The notes beneath the pieces were generated by a model that was given only the letters and a program-made list of their open reading frames with translations, ran no database searches and had not been told where the DNA came from. Below, one piece after another: positions 45,780 through 58,840 of a DNA stretch of 64,000 nucleotides. The position numbers and the translations under genes were made by a program. Within the stretch, counting starts at the first letter, position 1, and every line of letters begins with the position of its first letter. This stretch comes from Chlamydiales bacterium (lineage in GTDB: Bacteria; Chlamydiota; Chlamydiia; Chlamydiales; FEN-1388). Location of the stretch: NCBI GenBank assembly GCA_041737255.1, contig JBGSSB010000073.1, forward strand, positions 7,954-71,953. Reading direction: 5' to 3'.

Positions 45780-48014
45780 ATGACCCCGATTAATGACTCT
45801 GTTTTTAAAGTGCCCCACCCCCCATTACTTGGCTTAGAAACTCTTGCCACTGCAGCAAGCGATAGAGAGCGCCTAACATATGCCTCAAAATGTATTGATG
45901 TGATCCAGACTGTAGAGTTTGAGGAAGAGCGTATAGAAGATTTTTTCTTTGGTGTTTGTGGGGAAGTTTCTGAAGCAGGGCTACAGCACTGTTTTTCTGA
46001 AGAAGAATTAGAAAAGGTGTATGCATTTTTAGAATGGTATCACCTACTTTTAATGGGGTGCTTGCCCGATCCAAGTGGTTGTAAGGAAGAGCTAGATTGT
46101 GTCTTGAAATTTTTCAATCTTGATAGCTGCCTTGATATTTTACACTCAAAAAATAGCAAGCTTGATTTGACTACTAGTCGTTTTACGCTTGAGTGCTTAC
46201 TTACTATTATGGATGGCGCAAACGAGGCAAGGGAAGGACACTATAACGCTTTTCAGGATAAGGTGTGCAAGCTATTGAGTTACCACAGCTCAAAAGAGGT
46301 GGTTTTAGCTAATATAGAAATGCTTTTAACTGAGAAGCCATCTTTACTCTTTACAGAAGCCATATCGAACATGGAGCAAAACGAACGATTTCGATGGGCG
46401 TTGTTTATTTCAATTGTTTCCCAGTACAGCAATGAATTGGATTTTATTGAGCTCTTGGCAAAACAGGTAGCAGATAAAGAGCAGGGCTTCCCTCAGCATC
46501 TACAATCACATCTTATACACCTTTTGGCTGGAGTGAAAAAAAATTACTTAATGAGGCCTTGGGCGTGTTCTGGAGGCACGTCTTCTTATGGTTTGTCGCC
46601 GATTTTATTTGCCAAATTAGATGTTCCTGGGTTGCCAAATTGGATGCCAAATGGAGGTAATACCTGCTACATTTCAGCAACACTATGGCCACTATATTTA
46701 TTGATAGGTGACAAAATTAAAGAAAGTCTTTGTGCTGCTGACGTTGTAGATGCCCCTACCTCAACCCCTGTCGGCGCCTTTAAAGCTTTTTATTTAAAAA
46801 TGGCAGCTTCTGAAAGTACAAACATCACAGCAAAAGAAGTAAGTGAGTTTAGAAAAGCTATGCAGATAGCATTTCCGAGTAGATTTGCTTCATCTTTAAC
46901 ATGTGGGCAAGAAGATGCCTATGAGTTTTTGGCAGGAATTTTGCAGGAGCTGCTGGGCTTAGATTTTCAGGTTGACAAACCAGACGGATTTTATATTTTA
47001 CACAAGTTTAAGCGGACAAATGCTAAGTCCTTAGAAGGTTCAGAATATTATGATTACACCGCAGCACTTGCTCCTTCTTTTAGCCCCCAGCACTCACATA
47101 TCCTTGATATACCACTTGATGTGGGCCGTATGGTACCTGTAGCTTTGAGTGAACTTATTACGACTACTCGGCAAAATGGGCAAGTGGATCGAAATGTTCG
47201 ATTGTACCCTCGTGAAGTACTGAGTGAAAGCAATGTCGATACATATAATATTTTGCCAAAGCATCAAACCATTTCTGTTTATCACTCTGAGCAGTATCAG
47301 GTGGAATCAAGAGATCTTGCTCCAGAGTATTTTTGCGCTCGAATTAAGCGCTTTTCTTCTGACTCGCTTCAAAAAAGAAACGATCTTGTCCAGCCAAATG
47401 CAACCCTGGAATTTAGCTGCAGAGAAAATGAGCAGCAAACGGTACCCTATGATCTCGTTGCCATGACTATACATAGTGGGACAACTATTAACATGGGACA
47501 CTATTACACCTATATTAGACACCAAGTACAAGGTGAGTGGCGAATTTTTAAGTACGACGATATACAAGGCCCTGAACTTTGCGTTGATGAGCAAAAAGCA
47601 TTGCTTGATGTATCGAAAAGCGGGTATATCTTTTATTATAAAAAAAGAAAAGATGGTCTTGAATCCCCTCCTCAATTTATTTTCCCCGATAAGCTTCAGG
47701 AGGCAAAGGCGTGGGTGGCAACAAACGTATCAGGCAGCTTTTTTGTTGATGAAAAAAAGGGCTCATTGATGGCTGAGGATGATCCCACAGCTGAGTCTAA
47801 GGCTCTTAAGGGATTAGCTGAGGTTTTGGGAAAATCTGTCTATGTTATAGATCCAGTAAGAGACAGAGATTTGTTGGTGCTAGATAATGGTTACCCAATT
47901 CCTGGCGACTCTTTTTGCCATGGTGAAGAGTTTTCTCTTGGAGGAATTCAGTACCTATTTAAGCAGTCGGATAAATCGTATGTGTTGTTGACCAGTTTGA
48001 AGTGCCCGGATTGA
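45780..48014 (+). CDS. Eukaryote-type ubiquitin-specific protease (USP/UBP, peptidase C19) domain protein
   Basis: The Cys box is GLPNWMPNGGNTCYISATLWPL (Cys296), the QEDAYEF block is present, and the His box is YDLVAMTIHSGTTINMGHYYTYIR...WRIFKYDDIQG (His574). About 280 aa on the N-terminal side and about 120 aa on the C-terminal side are unassigned. Confidence 0.75.
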   Translation: MTPINDSVFKVPHPPLLGLETLATAASDRERLTYASKCIDVIQTVEFEEERIEDFFFGVCGEVSEAGLQHCFSEEELEKVYAFLEWYHLLLMGCLPDPSGCKEELDCVLKFFNLDSCLDILHSKNSKLDLTTSRFTLECLLTIMDGANEAREGHYNAFQDKVCKLLSYHSSKEVVLANIEMLLTEKPSLLFTEAISNMEQNERFRWALFISIVSQYSNELDFIELLAKQVADKEQGFPQHLQSHLIHLLAGVKKNYLMRPWACSGGTSSYGLSPILFAKLDVPGLPNWMPNGGNTCYISATLWPLYLLIGDKIKESLCAADVVDAPTSTPVGAFKAFYLKMAASESTNITAKEVSEFRKAMQIAFPSRFASSLTCGQEDAYEFLAGILQELLGLDFQVDKPDGFYILHKFKRTNAKSLEGSEYYDYTAALAPSFSPQHSHILDIPLDVGRMVPVALSELITTTRQNGQVDRNVRLYPREVLSESNVDTYNILPKHQTISVYHSEQYQVESRDLAPEYFCARIKRFSSDSLQKRNDLVQPNATLEFSCRENEQQTVPYDLVAMTIHSGTTINMGHYYTYIRHQVQGEWRIFKYDDIQGPELCVDEQKALLDVSKSGYIFYYKKRKDGLESPPQFIFPDKLQEAKAWVATNVSGSFFVDEKKGSLMAEDDPTAESKALKGLAEVLGKSVYVIDPVRDRDLLVLDNGYPIPGDSFCHGEEFSLGGIQYLFKQSDKSYVLLTSLKCPD

Positions 48015-48138: not shown

Positions 48139-48891
48139 CTATTTGACAGTACTTTTGTTTGTGGCAAAAAAGAGGAATTTCTTTAGACAAGAGGCGACTT
48201 CCTGGCGCTCTTCGTCATTTAGTTCATCTTCATGTCGTTTAAAATAGGTGATAAGTCGTTCCAGATTCGTTAAAAGGTTTTGGCAGCTACGAACACCCCT
48301 TTTGTCTTTTGAAGGCAATGGGAAGGCTGTACGGATGCGCTCTAGCATCTCTTGTTTTGTTTCACCGTTGTAGGATGAGATGATCAACTTTTTTTCGTCT
48401 AAAGGTGCCTGACGGCTTGCTAAGGTATACATAACTTGGCGAGGAAGGCTTTCTGCTTTTGTTTTTAGCTCGTGTGGGAGTAGATCGATTAATTCGTAGT
48501 ACATGAGGAAGTTATAGGGCGTTTGACGGTTGCCATAGGTTGCAACTAGCCATGCACTAAAGGCGCCTTCTTTGTAACTTTTGAGAATACGTTGAGCTCG
48601 CATGATGCGCTCACCATGCAAAATAGCCGCTTGGTTTGTAATGGCTTTGATTTCAGAGGTAATGCTAAAGAGCGCCTGAAGATCAGATCCAATGTCATGG
48701 GCTGTATCTGGCGTATGTTTATGCAGAATGTCTTCAAGGCGCAATTTTTCGAGATCTTCGAGCTCGACCGATTTAAAGAGACCGGAAAACCCTGTAAGGC
48801 GACCATCATTGGATTGTTTGGCAAGAGCCTTAATTTTTTGAGATCCGCCCGATGAAAAACGCCCCTCTAACATCTCTTCTAATTTTGTCAT
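48139..48891 (-). CDS. pGP6-D-like protein (chromosomal paralogue of chlamydial plasmid protein pGP6-D; presumed partition adaptor)
   Basis: The core block ILHGERIMRAQRILKSYKEGAFSAWLVATYGNRQTPYNFLMYYELIDLLPHELKTKAESLPRQVMYTLASRQ is collinear with the pGP6-D sequence as I recall it (LLGEKIYNARKIL...FSSWIELVF...AYNALAYYELFINLP...IPYKSAYILAAR). Confidence 0.7.
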   Translation of the reverse strand: MTKLEEMLEGRFSSGGSQKIKALAKQSNDGRLTGFSGLFKSVELEDLEKLRLEDILHKHTPDTAHDIGSDLQALFSITSEIKAITNQAAILHGERIMRAQRILKSYKEGAFSAWLVATYGNRQTPYNFLMYYELIDLLPHELKTKAESLPRQVMYTLASRQAPLDEKKLIISSYNGETKQEMLERIRTAFPLPSKDKRGVRSCQNLLTNLERLITYFKRHEDELNDEERQEVASCLKKFLFFATNKSTVK

Positions 48892-54678: not shown

Positions 54679-54985
54679 TAGCCTAAGCAGATTTTTCTTG
54701 CAAATCTAAACGGAATTATGCTAATCCGGTCATTAAGTTAATAATGGGCAAAAAAAATTGCGCCATTTGCATTTTTACGGAGTGGAAAAAAATTTGTTCT
54801 GAAGTCATTTACAGTGATCAGTTTAGAGAAATGGCAGGGCAAAATGTGTTTACAAAAATTCCAATCCTACATATACACTGTGGCCAATATTGTTGATGCG
54901 ATTCGATAAATATTGTGCAGCATGAATGTAGTAGTGCTTGCAAATTGGACGCTCAAAAAAGATTTTTTTTAGGGAACTTGCAACA

Positions 54986-56299
54986 ATGGAGAAAACCATG
55001 AAACTAATGAAATACTTATTGCCACTCGCAATGGCAGTATGCGGTATGACCACAATGAACGCCGACGGGGACTTTTCATCAGTCCAGGAAGCTCGCGAAA
55101 GGGATCCAGACGCTGTTCTAGATTACCTTAAGTCAAAGCGCGCTATCACAATGGCGGAAAAAGGTGGCAACTTGACCATCAGCGGAGACATCCAAGTTGA
55201 ATGGGATTATATGAAGTGCAGAACAGACGGCATGAAAATGCGCGGCTCCGGCTCTGCAAAGAGAAAGGCACCAACAAAGCCTGATTATACACCTTTTGCT
55301 ACAAGCGAGTTTGACACTGAAGTTAACTTGATGTTTGACTACAGAACAGATCGCACATGGGCTGCTATCCAGTTCAAATACGACAATCCAATGGGTATTC
55401 GTCAAGCACGTATAGATCCAAGAAAGCGTCCTAACGATAAAGAGCGTAACCGCCTTTTTGGAAGCGGCGTAGTATCTAACATCGAAATGCGCAAAGCGTA
55501 TATGGGCTACAACTTCATCGACGAAGGTACATCACGTTTAGATCTAGAAATCGGTCATCGCCGTCTTTATGACGTGTTTGATTCTGAAGTTCAGTTCTAC
55601 AACTACTTTGATGGTGCATTGTTGAAGTATGCTCATAGCTTTGATGGCTTAACTGATTTTACTGCTAAAGCTGCTGCTTTTGTGGTTGATTCAGCAGTTA
55701 ACCATTTCGGCTACGTTGCTGAACTTGGTTTCCTTAACATTACTGACACAGGCCTTGATCTTAAGTATTCGATCATCGACTGGCAGAGAAATGGCGCGAA
55801 CCGTTATGGACACAAAAAGCCACGTGGTGCTGATTTCCTAGTATCTCAGTACACAGCTGCATACACACTACCAGCTGACATGGTTCCTTGCAAAACTAAA
55901 TTTTATGGCGCTTTCCTCCATAACTCAGAAGCTAAAAAAACTCACTTCTCAAACTACAAGAAAGCTGACAATGCTTGGTATGTTGGTGTGAAGATGGGCG
56001 AAGTTCGCAAGAAAGGCGACTGGGCTGTAGATGTAAACTACCAGTGGGTAGAAGCTCAATCAGTACCTGAAACAGATGTATCTGGTATTAAGAGAGACAA
56101 TCCAACAGGTACTTCTTTCTATGATGAGTCTTGGGGTGGTTTTGCTAACTACAAAGGTTACAAAATTGATGGTTTCTACGCCTTTACTGACAACCTCACA
56201 ATGAACGCTTCTTTCGAGAAAGTTCGTGAGTGCAAACGCAGCATCGGTGGTAAGCATCGCTCTCATCAGTTCCAACTCTCAGCAATCTACGCTTTCTAA
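54986..56299 (+). CDS. Putative outer-membrane beta-barrel porin
   Basis: The signal peptide is MKLMKYLLPLAMAVCGMTTMNA. Alternating amphipathic beta-strand patterns run throughout, with aromatic girdle residues and a C-terminal ...QLSAIYAF ending in Phe. The mature part has only 3 Cys. The exact start is uncertain among 54986, 54998 and 55007. Confidence 0.6.
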   Translation: MEKTMKLMKYLLPLAMAVCGMTTMNADGDFSSVQEARERDPDAVLDYLKSKRAITMAEKGGNLTISGDIQVEWDYMKCRTDGMKMRGSGSAKRKAPTKPDYTPFATSEFDTEVNLMFDYRTDRTWAAIQFKYDNPMGIRQARIDPRKRPNDKERNRLFGSGVVSNIEMRKAYMGYNFIDEGTSRLDLEIGHRRLYDVFDSEVQFYNYFDGALLKYAHSFDGLTDFTAKAAAFVVDSAVNHFGYVAELGFLNITDTGLDLKYSIIDWQRNGANRYGHKKPRGADFLVSQYTAAYTLPADMVPCKTKFYGAFLHNSEAKKTHFSNYKKADNAWYVGVKMGEVRKKGDWAVDVNYQWVEAQSVPETDVSGIKRDNPTGTSFYDESWGGFANYKGYKIDGFYAFTDNLTMNASFEKVRECKRSIGGKHRSHQFQLSAIYAF

Positions 56300-56327: not shown

Positions 56328-56361
56328 AAAAAAGGGCTCCCAAAAGGAGCCCTTTTTTTTT
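56328..56361 (+). terminator. Rho-independent terminator of the porin gene (A-tract / T-tract flanked, potentially bidirectional)
   Basis: AAAAAA-GGGCTCC-caaaa-GGAGCCC-TTTTTTTTT, read directly. Confidence 0.85.
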
Positions 56362-56600
56362 GCCTACGCCCAAGTCTTATAAAGCTGTCTTAGTGTTTCA
56401 TACATTAATGTGCTATTGATCTCACTGAGCGCTTCTCAGGCAAAAAATCTCTCATCATTTGTCACATTATCGATAAATAACAAGACATGCAGGATCACTC
56501 GATGCCAGGGCAAGCAAAATAATCTTAAATGATAAGAAAAGTATAACGATAAAATGATAAAGGAAACTACAAGTGGCGATGCTCATGTTTCAGCAGTAAG

Positions 56601-56790
56601 TTTGTTCTTGAGCTTTAGCTCTATGGAGTCCGAGCGCAGCATGCGCCGCTCTCAATTTCATCGTAAATCCTTACTTAGATAGAATCAAAGCAACATTGTC
56701 CTTACTCTAGCCTCGAGGCATTTCGTGAAAGAGTCTCGGTCTAAAATGAGAGCGGTGCAAAACTCAAGAGAGCTAAAGCTGAAGGGCAAA
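56601..56790. other. 190-nt element closed by a 22-bp inverted repeat with a second nested stem (candidate structured ncRNA or MITE-like relic)
   Basis: 56601-56622 (TTTGTTCTTGAGCTTTAGCTCT) pairs with 56769-56790 (AGAGCTAAAGCTGAAGGGCAAA) as 19 Watson-Crick pairs, 2 G:U and 1 mismatch. The inner stem pairs 56646-56658 with 56743-56755. A local GCGC-AGCAT-GCGC hairpin and the 10-bp palindrome GCCTCGAGGC (56710-56719) lie inside. Confidence 0.5.
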
Positions 56791-56838
56791 TTCTACATTA
56801 AGCCATTCTTTGAAAAAGTGCATAAGCCCCCCCCCTAG

Positions 56839-57001
56839 GCCGGGGCCTGGCTTCCTATGAACTTGGATCGCCGTACGAACCATAAATAGGTTCAAAATTG
56901 TGGAAATAAAAGGTAGAGCATCGAGGTTTTGAGGGCAAGATTGCATTTGCCGATTGCACCCACAAGTTCCGTTGAGATTAGCAAGGAAGCCAAGCCACGG
57001 C
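56839..57001. other. 163-nt element closed by a 17-bp imperfect inverted repeat with nested hairpins (second candidate structured RNA)
   Basis: GCCGGGGCCTGGCTTCC (56839-56855) pairs with GGAAGCCAAGCCACGGC (56985-57001) at 15 of 17 positions. The next stem is GAACTTG (56859-56865) with CAAGTTC (56963-56969). Internal hairpins are GAACC-ataaata-GGTTC (56877-56893) and GGCAA-gattgcat-TTGCC (56934-56951). Confidence 0.45.
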
Positions 57002-57061
57002 TTGAAGAACGTGCAAATAATGATACGTTAACTGAGTAAATCCTTCAGCTTGCTGTTCAAG

Positions 57062-58840
57062 TTATAGCTGAGTCATTTCAGCTTCGTAAAGCTTTTGTGC
57101 AGGATACCCTTCAGGGAACTGGATTTGCTTTTGTTTGAAGCTAAAAAAGGCAACTGGCACGTGATGCTGCCACGTTGCTTTTAGGGTACGAATACTTTCA
57201 GCATGATGAACTGGAAGAAATATGGCGACAGATGTTCCCCGTTCTAGTGCATTTTTGATGATTGTGCCGGCTGCTGCTTCAGGATTTAGCTCATCTAGTA
57301 CATAGAGTTCATTTTGTAGATTAAAGCGGCGTAAAAGGCGCTTGTATAAGGGTACTGGTGCTCTATTTTCGTTAAGGACAAAGAGGTGCATCCTTCGTGA
57401 TTGAGATCCCGTTAAAATTGCAGACCAGGGCCATGGTGGAAGTGTGGAAAAAAAGAGTGCCGGTGCATGCCCCTCAAGATTTGATTTTCCGTGAACAATT
57501 GCATTAAACTTAAAGCGAGAGAGCAGCATATAAAAAAACCGTGTGACATAGCCGGATATTGCTACTGTTATAGCTGTTACGTAAAATAGCGCAATGATGC
57601 CAACAGCTAAAAAGCCTGTATCAGCTCGTATGCCGAGAACTTCACTTAACAAATAAAGCATTCCTGCCGAAAGCAAGACCCCAAAAAAACCTAAAAAGTT
57701 GGTTGTAGCTATAACTTGGCCCCTGATGGTCTTGGGGCTGGCTAGTTGAATATAGGAATCAAGTGGTACAAGGTACAGTCCACCAAAGATGCCAATTAAT
57801 ACAATGAGGATGATTTCTAGGACTACATAGCTACGAAAGACATTTAGTAGGATAAAGCAAAGGGCTATTCCGTAGCCACCAATAGGAACAAGCCCCAGTT
57901 CTACAGTTTTTCCAGAGAGCTTACCGGCAAGAAGTGATCCTGCACCTATTCCTAGAGCTGTGAGAAGAAAAAGGTAGCCACCCTGCACATCTGTCAGCCC
58001 AAGAGTTTCAAGAGCAAAAGGGATCATGTTTAATTGTGCATATGATCCCATAAATAAAAAGAATGCTGAGCCAAATACAGCACTAAGTAATGAGGGCTGT
58101 TTAGCGATGAGGCGTAGGTTTATAAAGAGCTCGCTAATAAAACGAGGGCTTATTTTCTTTTGCGAGCCTGAGGGCGCGGTTTTGGGGATCTTTAGGCTGG
58201 AAAAAATTCCAAGAACAGCAAAAAGTATGGTAGCACATGAGGCCAGGATAAAATTGTGGCCGCTCATATCAGTAAGAAAAGAAGCTAAAAAAGTGCCTAA
58301 AATAATGGCAACATAAGTAAATGATGCAACTATACCATTTGCTTTTGATATTTTATCTTGTGAAACAATTTCTGGTACGATTCCGTACTTACAAGGAGCA
58401 AAGATAGCGCTGTGACAGGCAAGTAAAAACAGGGCTCCATAGGCAAGTGACTTGCTTTCTAAAGAAAACGACACTAGCCCTAGCACCATCACGCAACATT
58501 CAACAATTTTCACAATAATTATGATGGATCGCTTACTGTAACGGTCGGCCATTGTTCCTGCTGTTGAGGAAAGAAAGAGAAATGGCAGCACATATATGGC
58601 GCCAACGGAGGCTAAAATTTTGTTGCTAGCAGCAGCGCCTTCTAAAGCAATAAAGCAGTAAACGATAAGCAGTTTATAAATATTATCATTCATGGCACCT
58701 AAAAACTGCGTGCAGTTTAAAAAGCCAAAAGGGCCCATCTGCAGTTTAGCAAACTGGCGTTGAAAAAAGGAAAAGCGAGAATTAGTCACATCACACGGAA
58801 GTTTATTCATAAAAACATCATATTTTATCTTACAGTCCAT
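57062..58840 (-). CDS. MFS transporter (lysophospholipid-transporter LplT-like) fused to a degenerate acyltransferase-like C-terminal domain
   Basis: About 420 aa form a 12-TM MFS core (MADRYSKRSIIII; LSGKTVELGLVPIGG). A soluble tail of about 170 aa follows (FNAIVHGKSNLEGHAPALFFSTLPPWPWSAIL...), laid out like a PlsC-type domain but without an H-x4-D motif. Confidence 0.55.
   Translation of the reverse strand: MDCKIKYDVFMNKLPCDVTNSRFSFFQRQFAKLQMGPFGFLNCTQFLGAMNDNIYKLLIVYCFIALEGAAASNKILASVGAIYVLPFLFLSSTAGTMADRYSKRSIIIIVKIVECCVMVLGLVSFSLESKSLAYGALFLLACHSAIFAPCKYGIVPEIVSQDKISKANGIVASFTYVAIILGTFLASFLTDMSGHNFILASCATILFAVLGIFSSLKIPKTAPSGSQKKISPRFISELFINLRLIAKQPSLLSAVFGSAFFLFMGSYAQLNMIPFALETLGLTDVQGGYLFLLTALGIGAGSLLAGKLSGKTVELGLVPIGGYGIALCFILLNVFRSYVVLEIILIVLIGIFGGLYLVPLDSYIQLASPKTIRGQVIATTNFLGFFGVLLSAGMLYLLSEVLGIRADTGFLAVGIIALFYVTAITVAISGYVTRFFYMLLSRFKFNAIVHGKSNLEGHAPALFFSTLPPWPWSAILTGSQSRRMHLFVLNENRAPVPLYKRLLRRFNLQNELYVLDELNPEAAAGTIIKNALERGTSVAIFLPVHHAESIRTLKATWQHHVPVAFFSFKQKQIQFPEGYPAQKLYEAEMTQL

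Follow-up and report, generated by a model that had tools for sequence, protein, structure and literature searches.

A dispersed palindromic repeat with a conserved arm hairpin in the spacer between convergent porin and MFS transporter genes of an environmental Chlamydia-like bacterium

REPINs and BIMEs are inverted doublets of REP stem-loops that are mobilised by RAYT tyrosine transposases, and a survey of GTAG- and CGTC-tagged REPs extends to the PVC superphylum, but the elements in it are tagged differently from the repeat reported here (PMC3733652). Palindromic mobile repeats are little described in Chlamydiae: searches of full-text literature turned up neither a MITE nor a REP family for this group, and no paper with the core sequence that we report below. 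IS200/IS605-type and RAYT HUH transposases read their ends as hairpins, and integron attC sites are imperfect palindromes that have R''/R' core sites at their ends, with the consensus RYYYAAC ... GTTRRRY. The palindrome that we describe here, Element A, is one copy of a dispersed family and lies in a spacer between two convergent genes.

The stretch of DNA that we analysed (64 kb, called the window throughout) carries a thrS / parA-like / UPF0137 (pGP6-D) cluster, recC, and a gene for a UCH-domain protein. Its porin-like protein has as closest named relative a protein annotated as coming from a Chlamydiales MAG, and the source of the window is an environmental Chlamydia-like bacterium. The UCH-domain protein is a eukaryote-type ubiquitin C-terminal hydrolase of 744 aa whose gene adjoins the chromosomal UPF0137 (pGP6-D-like) gene (45780–48014 and 48139–48891), and both are typical of environmental Chlamydiae. 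Elsewhere in the window, a 399-aa minus-strand ORF with HATPase_c_4 and Fic-like C-terminal domains contains three tandem 21-nt units (34342–34425, alternating TGTTTC.../TGTTAT...CTGGTG), which would yield a 7-residue protein repeat.

The porin-like gene and the MFS transporter gene converge on a spacer of 762 bp, in which the largest ORF is 57 aa long. This agrees with an earlier, purely sequence-based description of the window (the original prediction), which had seen no ORF of 60 aa or more in 700 bp of the spacer and a textbook intrinsic terminator, which is indeed present, just after the porin gene. A gap of this size had also been called exceptional in the window, which it is not: the region 35260–36269 (~1 kb) has no ORF longer than 87 aa and is a larger apparent gap. 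We found no recognisable intrinsic terminator belonging to the MFS gene, and a promoter scan found no sigma-70-like site in the spacer. At another point in the window where genes converge, a 19-bp hairpin (19261–19313, 95% complementary) precedes a T-rich run and probably terminates transcription in both directions; the surrounding region, 19140–19440, is among the most stable 200-nt segments on both strands.

Two foldback structures, Elements A and B, had been proposed in the spacer, and we found the stems of both where they had been drawn. The longest local inverted repeat in the 64-kb window is in Element A. Its outer arms are at 56601–56629 and 56762–56790, and inside them is a second pair at 56642–56658 and 56743–56759 (17 nt, 88% complementary). 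Element A is also the most stable plus-strand 200-nt segment across the 64 kb, with a plus-strand minimum free energy of −68.3 kcal/mol (z-scores relative to shuffled sequence: −4.7 plus strand, −3.4 minus strand).

Element A exists in many copies. The spacer is present almost exactly in four public metagenomes, from hot spring, biofilm and mine drainage, whose contigs we aligned to the region. Contig depth over approximately 56592–56820 is roughly 5–16 times that of the flanks in these four metagenomes, climbing sharply at 56592–56604 and dropping after ~56820, and it stays level across both flanking genes, porin and MFS, and across Element B. At 80% likeness, contig depths across the left arm add up to 54–63 versus ~6 in run X1, and to 85–107 versus 6.7 in run X3; copy numbers obtained in this way derive from summed k-mer depths of fragmentary metagenome contigs, not from a closed genome. 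Behind the surplus are 11–17 divergent contigs in each run, 80–95% identical to Element A, that enter unrelated flanks (five or more distinct ones on the left). In all four samples the depths of these variants follow that of the genome itself, which speaks for paralogs within one genome and against orthologs from other species; some of the copies could belong to co-occurring relatives. The original prediction had mentioned foldback or MITE-type relics as look-alikes of a stable RNA, and had stated in advance that many dispersed copies would speak against an RNA gene. Such copies are what we found for Element A: an excess of depth, divergent copies with different flanks, and members in unrelated gene contexts. 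The 64-kb window itself contains only the Element A copy and one 48-nt fragment.

The copy in the window is degenerate. Its base is the minority one at positions 56623, 56630, 56633, 56675, 56677, 56731 and 56742, so the family member in the window has diverged. At three of these positions, most other copies in these metagenomes differ from it (56623, T; 56630, G; 56633, C or T) and are thereby nearer to the family consensus CTTTGGAGTGCG than the window copy is. The left arm of the window copy retains the core, and the distal hairpin of its right arm is lost (56743–56773); other copies retain the right-arm hairpin (GGTGCATTACTGCACC), as seen in their loose ends at 56759.

To the right of the arms, the loose ends of other copies stay similar to the window through CCCTAG(G/A)CC(G/C)GG to ~56848. 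Beyond 56820 the tails of other copies read ...ATCAACCCCCTAGG and ...ATCAACACCCTAGACCCGGCCC, where the window has ATAAGCCCCCCCCCTAGGCCGGGGCC. A second MFS gene (32372–33727) ends, with a TAG codon, within a partial inverted copy of this right-end module elsewhere in the window, and the 333-nt convergent spacer that follows contains a possible 47-aa ORF (by eye). Together, the tails and the partial copy indicate that the C9 tract, which is located exactly where the original prediction had put it, belongs to the right-end module and is not a separate feature between two elements. The proposal of two independent structures with a C9 tract between them is therefore right only in part: Element B does not match the arm profile, but the C9 tract and the first bases of the left stem of Element B lie inside the A-type right-end module. 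The length of the tract varies between populations: the single contig of run X4 has C7 (two bases fewer), and other copies of the repeat have C5 or CACCC at this position.

A family member is also present in the same spacer, with the same porin/MFS synteny, in a contig from a related MAG (L001) whose porin is 74% identical. The palindrome in the L001 spacer is better preserved and is nested, with 49-nt arms at 94% lying inside further arms of 40–47 nt. By eye, its inner arms have three blocks in common with Element A; a BLASTN comparison of Element A to the L001 inner repeat did not detect the similarity, which appears only in the arm alignment and in the arm profile (the profile was built from the same arms, so its E-values for training members are circular). 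The exact core of Element A (GCGCAGCATGCGCCGCTCTYAAT) had zero matches when scanned against public metagenomes. From the blocks of L001 and Element A we built a degenerate two-block pattern (GGAGTNCG N5-20 YCGCTCTYAATTT), which we scanned on public metagenome contigs. It gave 37 matches, approximately three quarters of which are chance matches in coding DNA. The true members among them are in contigs L011, L014, L018, L031, L032 and L043, in L017 and L038, which have higher G+C content, and, more weakly, in L029. These members show features that the pattern did not demand–a hairpin between the blocks and, mostly, a second inverted arm nearby.

The porin and MFS genes are absent from all of these member contigs. 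Copies are found in either orientation and at contig breaks, and contigs L014, L031 and L043 break inside the element. None of the loci examined has arms flanking an ORF, neither a scan of viral contigs nor a BLASTN search of plasmids found a match to the repeat, and a protein search for copies with called genes, using the 42-aa ORF that runs across the left arm, found nothing. The two units of L011 are joined by a perfect hairpin of ~25 bp (AAATGTCCAAACTCGAGAGTCGAGC / GCTCGACTCTCGAGTTTGGACATTT), and the TTTGGACATTT module of this contig is also present in L001 and L043. In L017, the small ORF at the start of the element overlaps the stop of a preceding 68-aa ORF; Pfam gave no confirmation for our guess that this copy interrupts a hicA gene beside hicB, and we dropped it. 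The neighboring genes in L017 and L038 look non-chlamydial (sulfatase, Tad-pilus genes).

Table 1. Positions of features in the window, of family members at other loci, and of foldbacks in the orthologous spacers of relatives.
Feature	Sequence	Position	Strand	Description
Porin-like gene	Window	54938-56299	+	ORF
Porin-like gene intrinsic terminator	Window	56328..56361	+	13-bp perfect stem (arms 56328-56340 / 56346-56358), 5-nt loop, T run after
Degenerate copy of dispersed palindromic repeat (Element A + right-end module)	Window	56592..56848, approximate	.	From depth profile and loose ends of other copies
Outer inverted repeat of Element A, left arm	Window	56601..56629	.	Pairs with 56762-56790; 29 nt, 83% complementary
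Left-arm family core of Element A	Window	56624..56658	.	TGGAGT-CCGA-GCGCA-GCA-TGCGC-CGC-TCTCAATTT; hairpin with variable tip; aligned with 18 arms from other loci
Right arm of Element A	Window	56743..56790	.	Inverted core copy, distal hairpin lost; AAAATGAGAGCGG-TGCAAA-ACTCAAGAGAGC...
Right-end module of repeat	Window	56796..56843	.	Includes C9 tract and CCTAGGCCGG; homologous tails in other copies
C9 homopolymer	Window	56827..56835	+	Can pair with GGGG at 56842-56845
Element B, single-copy imperfect foldback	Window	56839..57001	.	163 nt; closing stem 56839-56856 / 56984-57001, 18 nt, 89% complementary
MFS transporter gene	Window	57062-58840	-	ORF
Partial inverted copy of right-end module	Window	33719..33766	.	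48-nt match, 71%, to 56796-56843; BLASTN E 2e-4 within spacer
Family member	L011	1-520		Two units back to back, central regions in opposite orientation
Family member	L014 + L031			Two halves of one locus, broken inside element; between enoyl-ACP reductase gene and Sel1-repeat gene
Family member	L017	2065-2445		Higher-G+C contig; starts ~12 codons into small ORF
Family member	L018			Between convergent small ORFs
Family member	L038	735-905		Between prepilin-peptidase-like and TadE-like ORFs; contig 61% G+C
Family member	L043			3' of trmD-rplS-rnhB-like ORFs (named by eye from translations)
Foldback	L003	5300-6032		~600-nt self-complementary stretch, 71%
Foldback	L004	5315-5627		Arms of GATCTT-type repeats
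Foldback	L005	5273-5594		Arms of AAGGACATAA-type repeats
Foldback	L045	5262-5482		Arms of CGGGCA repeats
Foldback	L046			Arms of CGGGCA repeats
Foldback	L049	3298-3479		Porin-downstream spacer

All 19 arms–that of the window and 18 from other loci–align over one core of ~30 nt, made up of TGGAGT, GCG, a variable self-complementary tip, CGC and TCTTAATTT. With its surroundings, the order of parts is a small variable hairpin, CTYTGGAGT, GCG(G), the variable tip and loop, (C)CGC, TCTTAATTT, and often GACCAC. When the arms are folded singly, every one of the 19 yields the same hairpin of 28–31 nt, which has a GAG/CTC foot, a 1x1 T·T mismatch, GCG/CGC and a distal stem, and lies between CTTTGG and TTAATTT. 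The distal stems are always self-complementary (GTAA/TTAC, GTGAA/TTCAC, GTGCA/TGCAC, GCGAA/TTCGC, GCGA/TCGC, GCAG/CTGC, GCGCA/TGCGC), and there are at least seven different self-complementary tips among the arms. Pair counts on the MAFFT alignment of the arms are too low for the distal stem, because bulges shift its register, and the folds of individual arms are the better evidence.

Two inverted arms are present in the window and in L001, L017, L018, L031, L032 and L038. Because the arms are inverted copies of each other, the whole element is palindromic. In L018 complementarity extends almost to the center, so the ~245-nt unit is a single palindrome with side hairpins, and by virtue of its two-fold symmetry the repeat folds equally on both strands. 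The termini of the L018 copy are sharp (CTATAGTTTATACTTTCG...CGAAAGTATAAACTATAG) and abut unrelated GC-rich hairpins, which differ in sequence from copy to copy. No target-site duplication is evident at this one complete, sharply bounded copy (the flanks are ...TGCCC and TCTCA...), and a duplication of TA inside CTATAG is possible.

Element A is very probably a copy, now decaying, of a non-autonomous DNA repeat that is multi-copy, non-coding and palindromic throughout and belongs to the REPIN/BIME-like or MITE-like class. We infer that the repeat has been mobile, and that a transposase or recombinase encoded elsewhere would act on it in trans by recognizing the arm hairpin, whose conserved foot, fixed mismatch and covarying tip are as might be expected of a site that a protein recognizes in hairpin form. 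Copies would persist where they are harmless, just past terminator-like hairpins at the 3' ends of genes and especially between convergent genes, and the porin/MFS spacer would be a permissive site of this kind, holding a copy whose right-end module includes the C9 tract. Any read-through transcript that reached the element would form a long double-stranded hairpin, with possible effects on termination or possible processing by RNase III.

A more radical reading, which we regard as unlikely, is that an undescribed enzyme of mobile elements, specific for hairpins and found in Chlamydiae and other bacteria, recognizes the arm hairpin as its site, or that the hairpin is an RNA module partnering an enzyme of this kind. 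It could play such a part because its foot is invariant, its stem has the T·T mismatch, its tip covaries, and it is common to low-GC Chlamydiales MAGs and contigs of 51–61% G+C. If this reading is correct, the site or module would represent a new transposition system and not another REP or MITE family. Of our results, the one most worth following up is that a single conserved hairpin recurs in genomes that differ widely in G+C content, and the core that is shared with the much higher-G+C contigs provides a handle for finding the enzyme that spreads the repeat.

Element B is less exceptional than Element A. Relative to shuffled sequence it has z-scores of −3.9 (plus strand) and −4.5 (minus strand), it is outside the 25 most stable 200-nt segments on either strand, and comparable stems, alike in length and quality, are found at other places in the window, some of them within genes. 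In the four metagenome runs, only the genome's own contigs cover Element B at ≥80% likeness, and it matches neither the arm profile nor the spacers of relatives. Most likely it is a relic of an older foldback insertion, a reading made by analogy, or an imperfect inverted repeat at chance level that has no function.

The porin terminator is the only segment of the spacer that is conserved in the relatives L003–L006. Every orthologous spacer that we examined has some long hairpin after this terminator, and the foldbacks of the relatives (Table 1) differ from one another and are unrelated in sequence. The site downstream of the porin gene seems to tolerate, or to attract, several kinds of palindromic DNA. 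Eight independent Logan contigs from relatives with 77–80% porin identity all end 26–272 nt past the porin stop codon, which fits the effect that repeats and long palindromes have on short-read assemblies. L005 has an amino-acid permease gene and an ArgR gene between its porin and MFS genes (5595–7477), which are absent in the window, L001, L003 and L004.

The recurrence of long hairpins in every orthologous spacer could also mean that the foldbacks are cis-acting structures at the 3' ends of the porin and MFS transcripts–extra terminators, RNase III targets or stabilizers–that are kept for strong insulation, and the MFS gene's want of a recognisable intrinsic terminator and the T-rich family termini that abut GC-rich hairpins would suit such a role. 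We think this improbable, however, because the spacer sequences are unrelated between close relatives, so that any selection would be on shape only, because Element A is multi-copy elsewhere, and because no T run follows the minus-strand stem of Element B.

The strength of the predicted folds, with Element A ranking first among plus-strand segments, had led the original prediction to interpret Elements A and B as genes encoding stable, structured ncRNAs such as 6S-like rods; a multi-copy family of sibling sRNAs would be a variant of the same idea. Compensatory changes that keep the arm hairpin across copies would be compatible with such a gene, as would the L001 family member, which lies in the same spacer beside a porin of 74% identity and could therefore mean long retention and hence some function. 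The Rfam scan that had been recommended, which we ran on both strands of the window and on seven related loci at gathering and permissive E-value thresholds, nevertheless matched no real family, even for the well-preserved copies. The signals that it gave were terminator look-alikes and sub-threshold models of plant and animal miRNA precursors, the latter because the element is a long hairpin. Among RNA sequencing runs, none was found to contain the region. An RNA gene also sits badly with a spacer that has no promoter-like site, with copies that occur in either orientation and at contig breaks, and with symmetry on both strands, in which each arm repeats a local hairpin in inverted form, as fits a repeat at the DNA level. 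On these grounds we consider the ncRNA reading very unlikely. That the spacer, or Element B in particular, is what is left of a protein gene that once stood between porin and MFS and has decayed, as the permease and ArgR genes of L005 might suggest and as translated homology could have revealed, is scarcely credible and can be set aside, because TBLASTN searches with the L005 permease and ArgR, an 86-aa ORF of L003 and both MFS proteins found nothing in the spacer, and its ORFs have no Pfam match.

With Element A read as a dispersed DNA repeat, a candidate ncRNA gene is replaced by the annotation of a repeat family. The repeat also explains why assemblies break just downstream of the porin gene in this chlamydial clade, and its core offers a way to follow insertions in environmental chlamydiae as strain markers.

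Among described systems, 6S RNA and other rod-like ncRNAs resemble Element A in being long imperfect rods closed by a terminal stem, but Element A has no Rfam match, promoter or terminator, is strand-symmetric, and has many dispersed copies. The ends of the repeat (CTATAGTTTATAC...GTATAAACTATAG in L018 and TTTGTTCTTGAGC...GCTGAAGGGCAAA in the window) do not fit the consensus for the core sites of integron attC sites. The Rickettsia palindromic elements (RPEs) are also palindromic repeats, of 100–150 bp or more, that have spread through the genome of an obligately intracellular species. However, RPEs are often located in frame inside genes whereas all the chlamydial copies seen here are extragenic, and there is no sequence similarity between RPEs and the A-type repeat.

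MITEs such as Correia/NEMIS, ERIC, RUP and Nezha are closer. Like them, the A-type repeat is in the range of 70–300 bp, has no coding capacity, is dispersed in multiple copies, and could, if transcribed, fold as a whole into one hairpin, and the L018 copy has terminal inverted repeats (CTATAGTTTATACTTTCG). We take the TATAG at the start of these termini to resemble the Correia terminal repeat, and a CTAG or TA target would presumably fit IS630-type elements. Unlike MITEs, the A-type repeat has no known parent IS with matching ends (there was no match in plasmid and viral collections), and the conserved mismatch and covarying tip of its internal hairpin are more like those of a REP.

The comparison to REPINs and BIMEs has two sides. 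The A-type unit is larger (190–270 nt) and has extra nested palindromic modules, it is not known to be linked to a RAYT gene, its copy number appears to be in the tens and not in the hundreds, and the foot of its hairpin has neither GTAG/CTAC nor CGTC/GACG, the core reading CTTTGGAGT-GCG...CGC-TCTTAATTT. On the other side, the repeat is non-coding, multi-copy and extragenic, is often located between convergent genes, and, at L018, shows no evident target-site duplication. As in a REP, each arm–all 19 of them–is a short imperfect palindrome (28–31 nt) with conserved flanks that is repeated in extragenic DNA, Element A being 5–16 times deeper in contigs than its surroundings, and, as in a REP doublet, two such units in inverted orientation together form a long hairpin.
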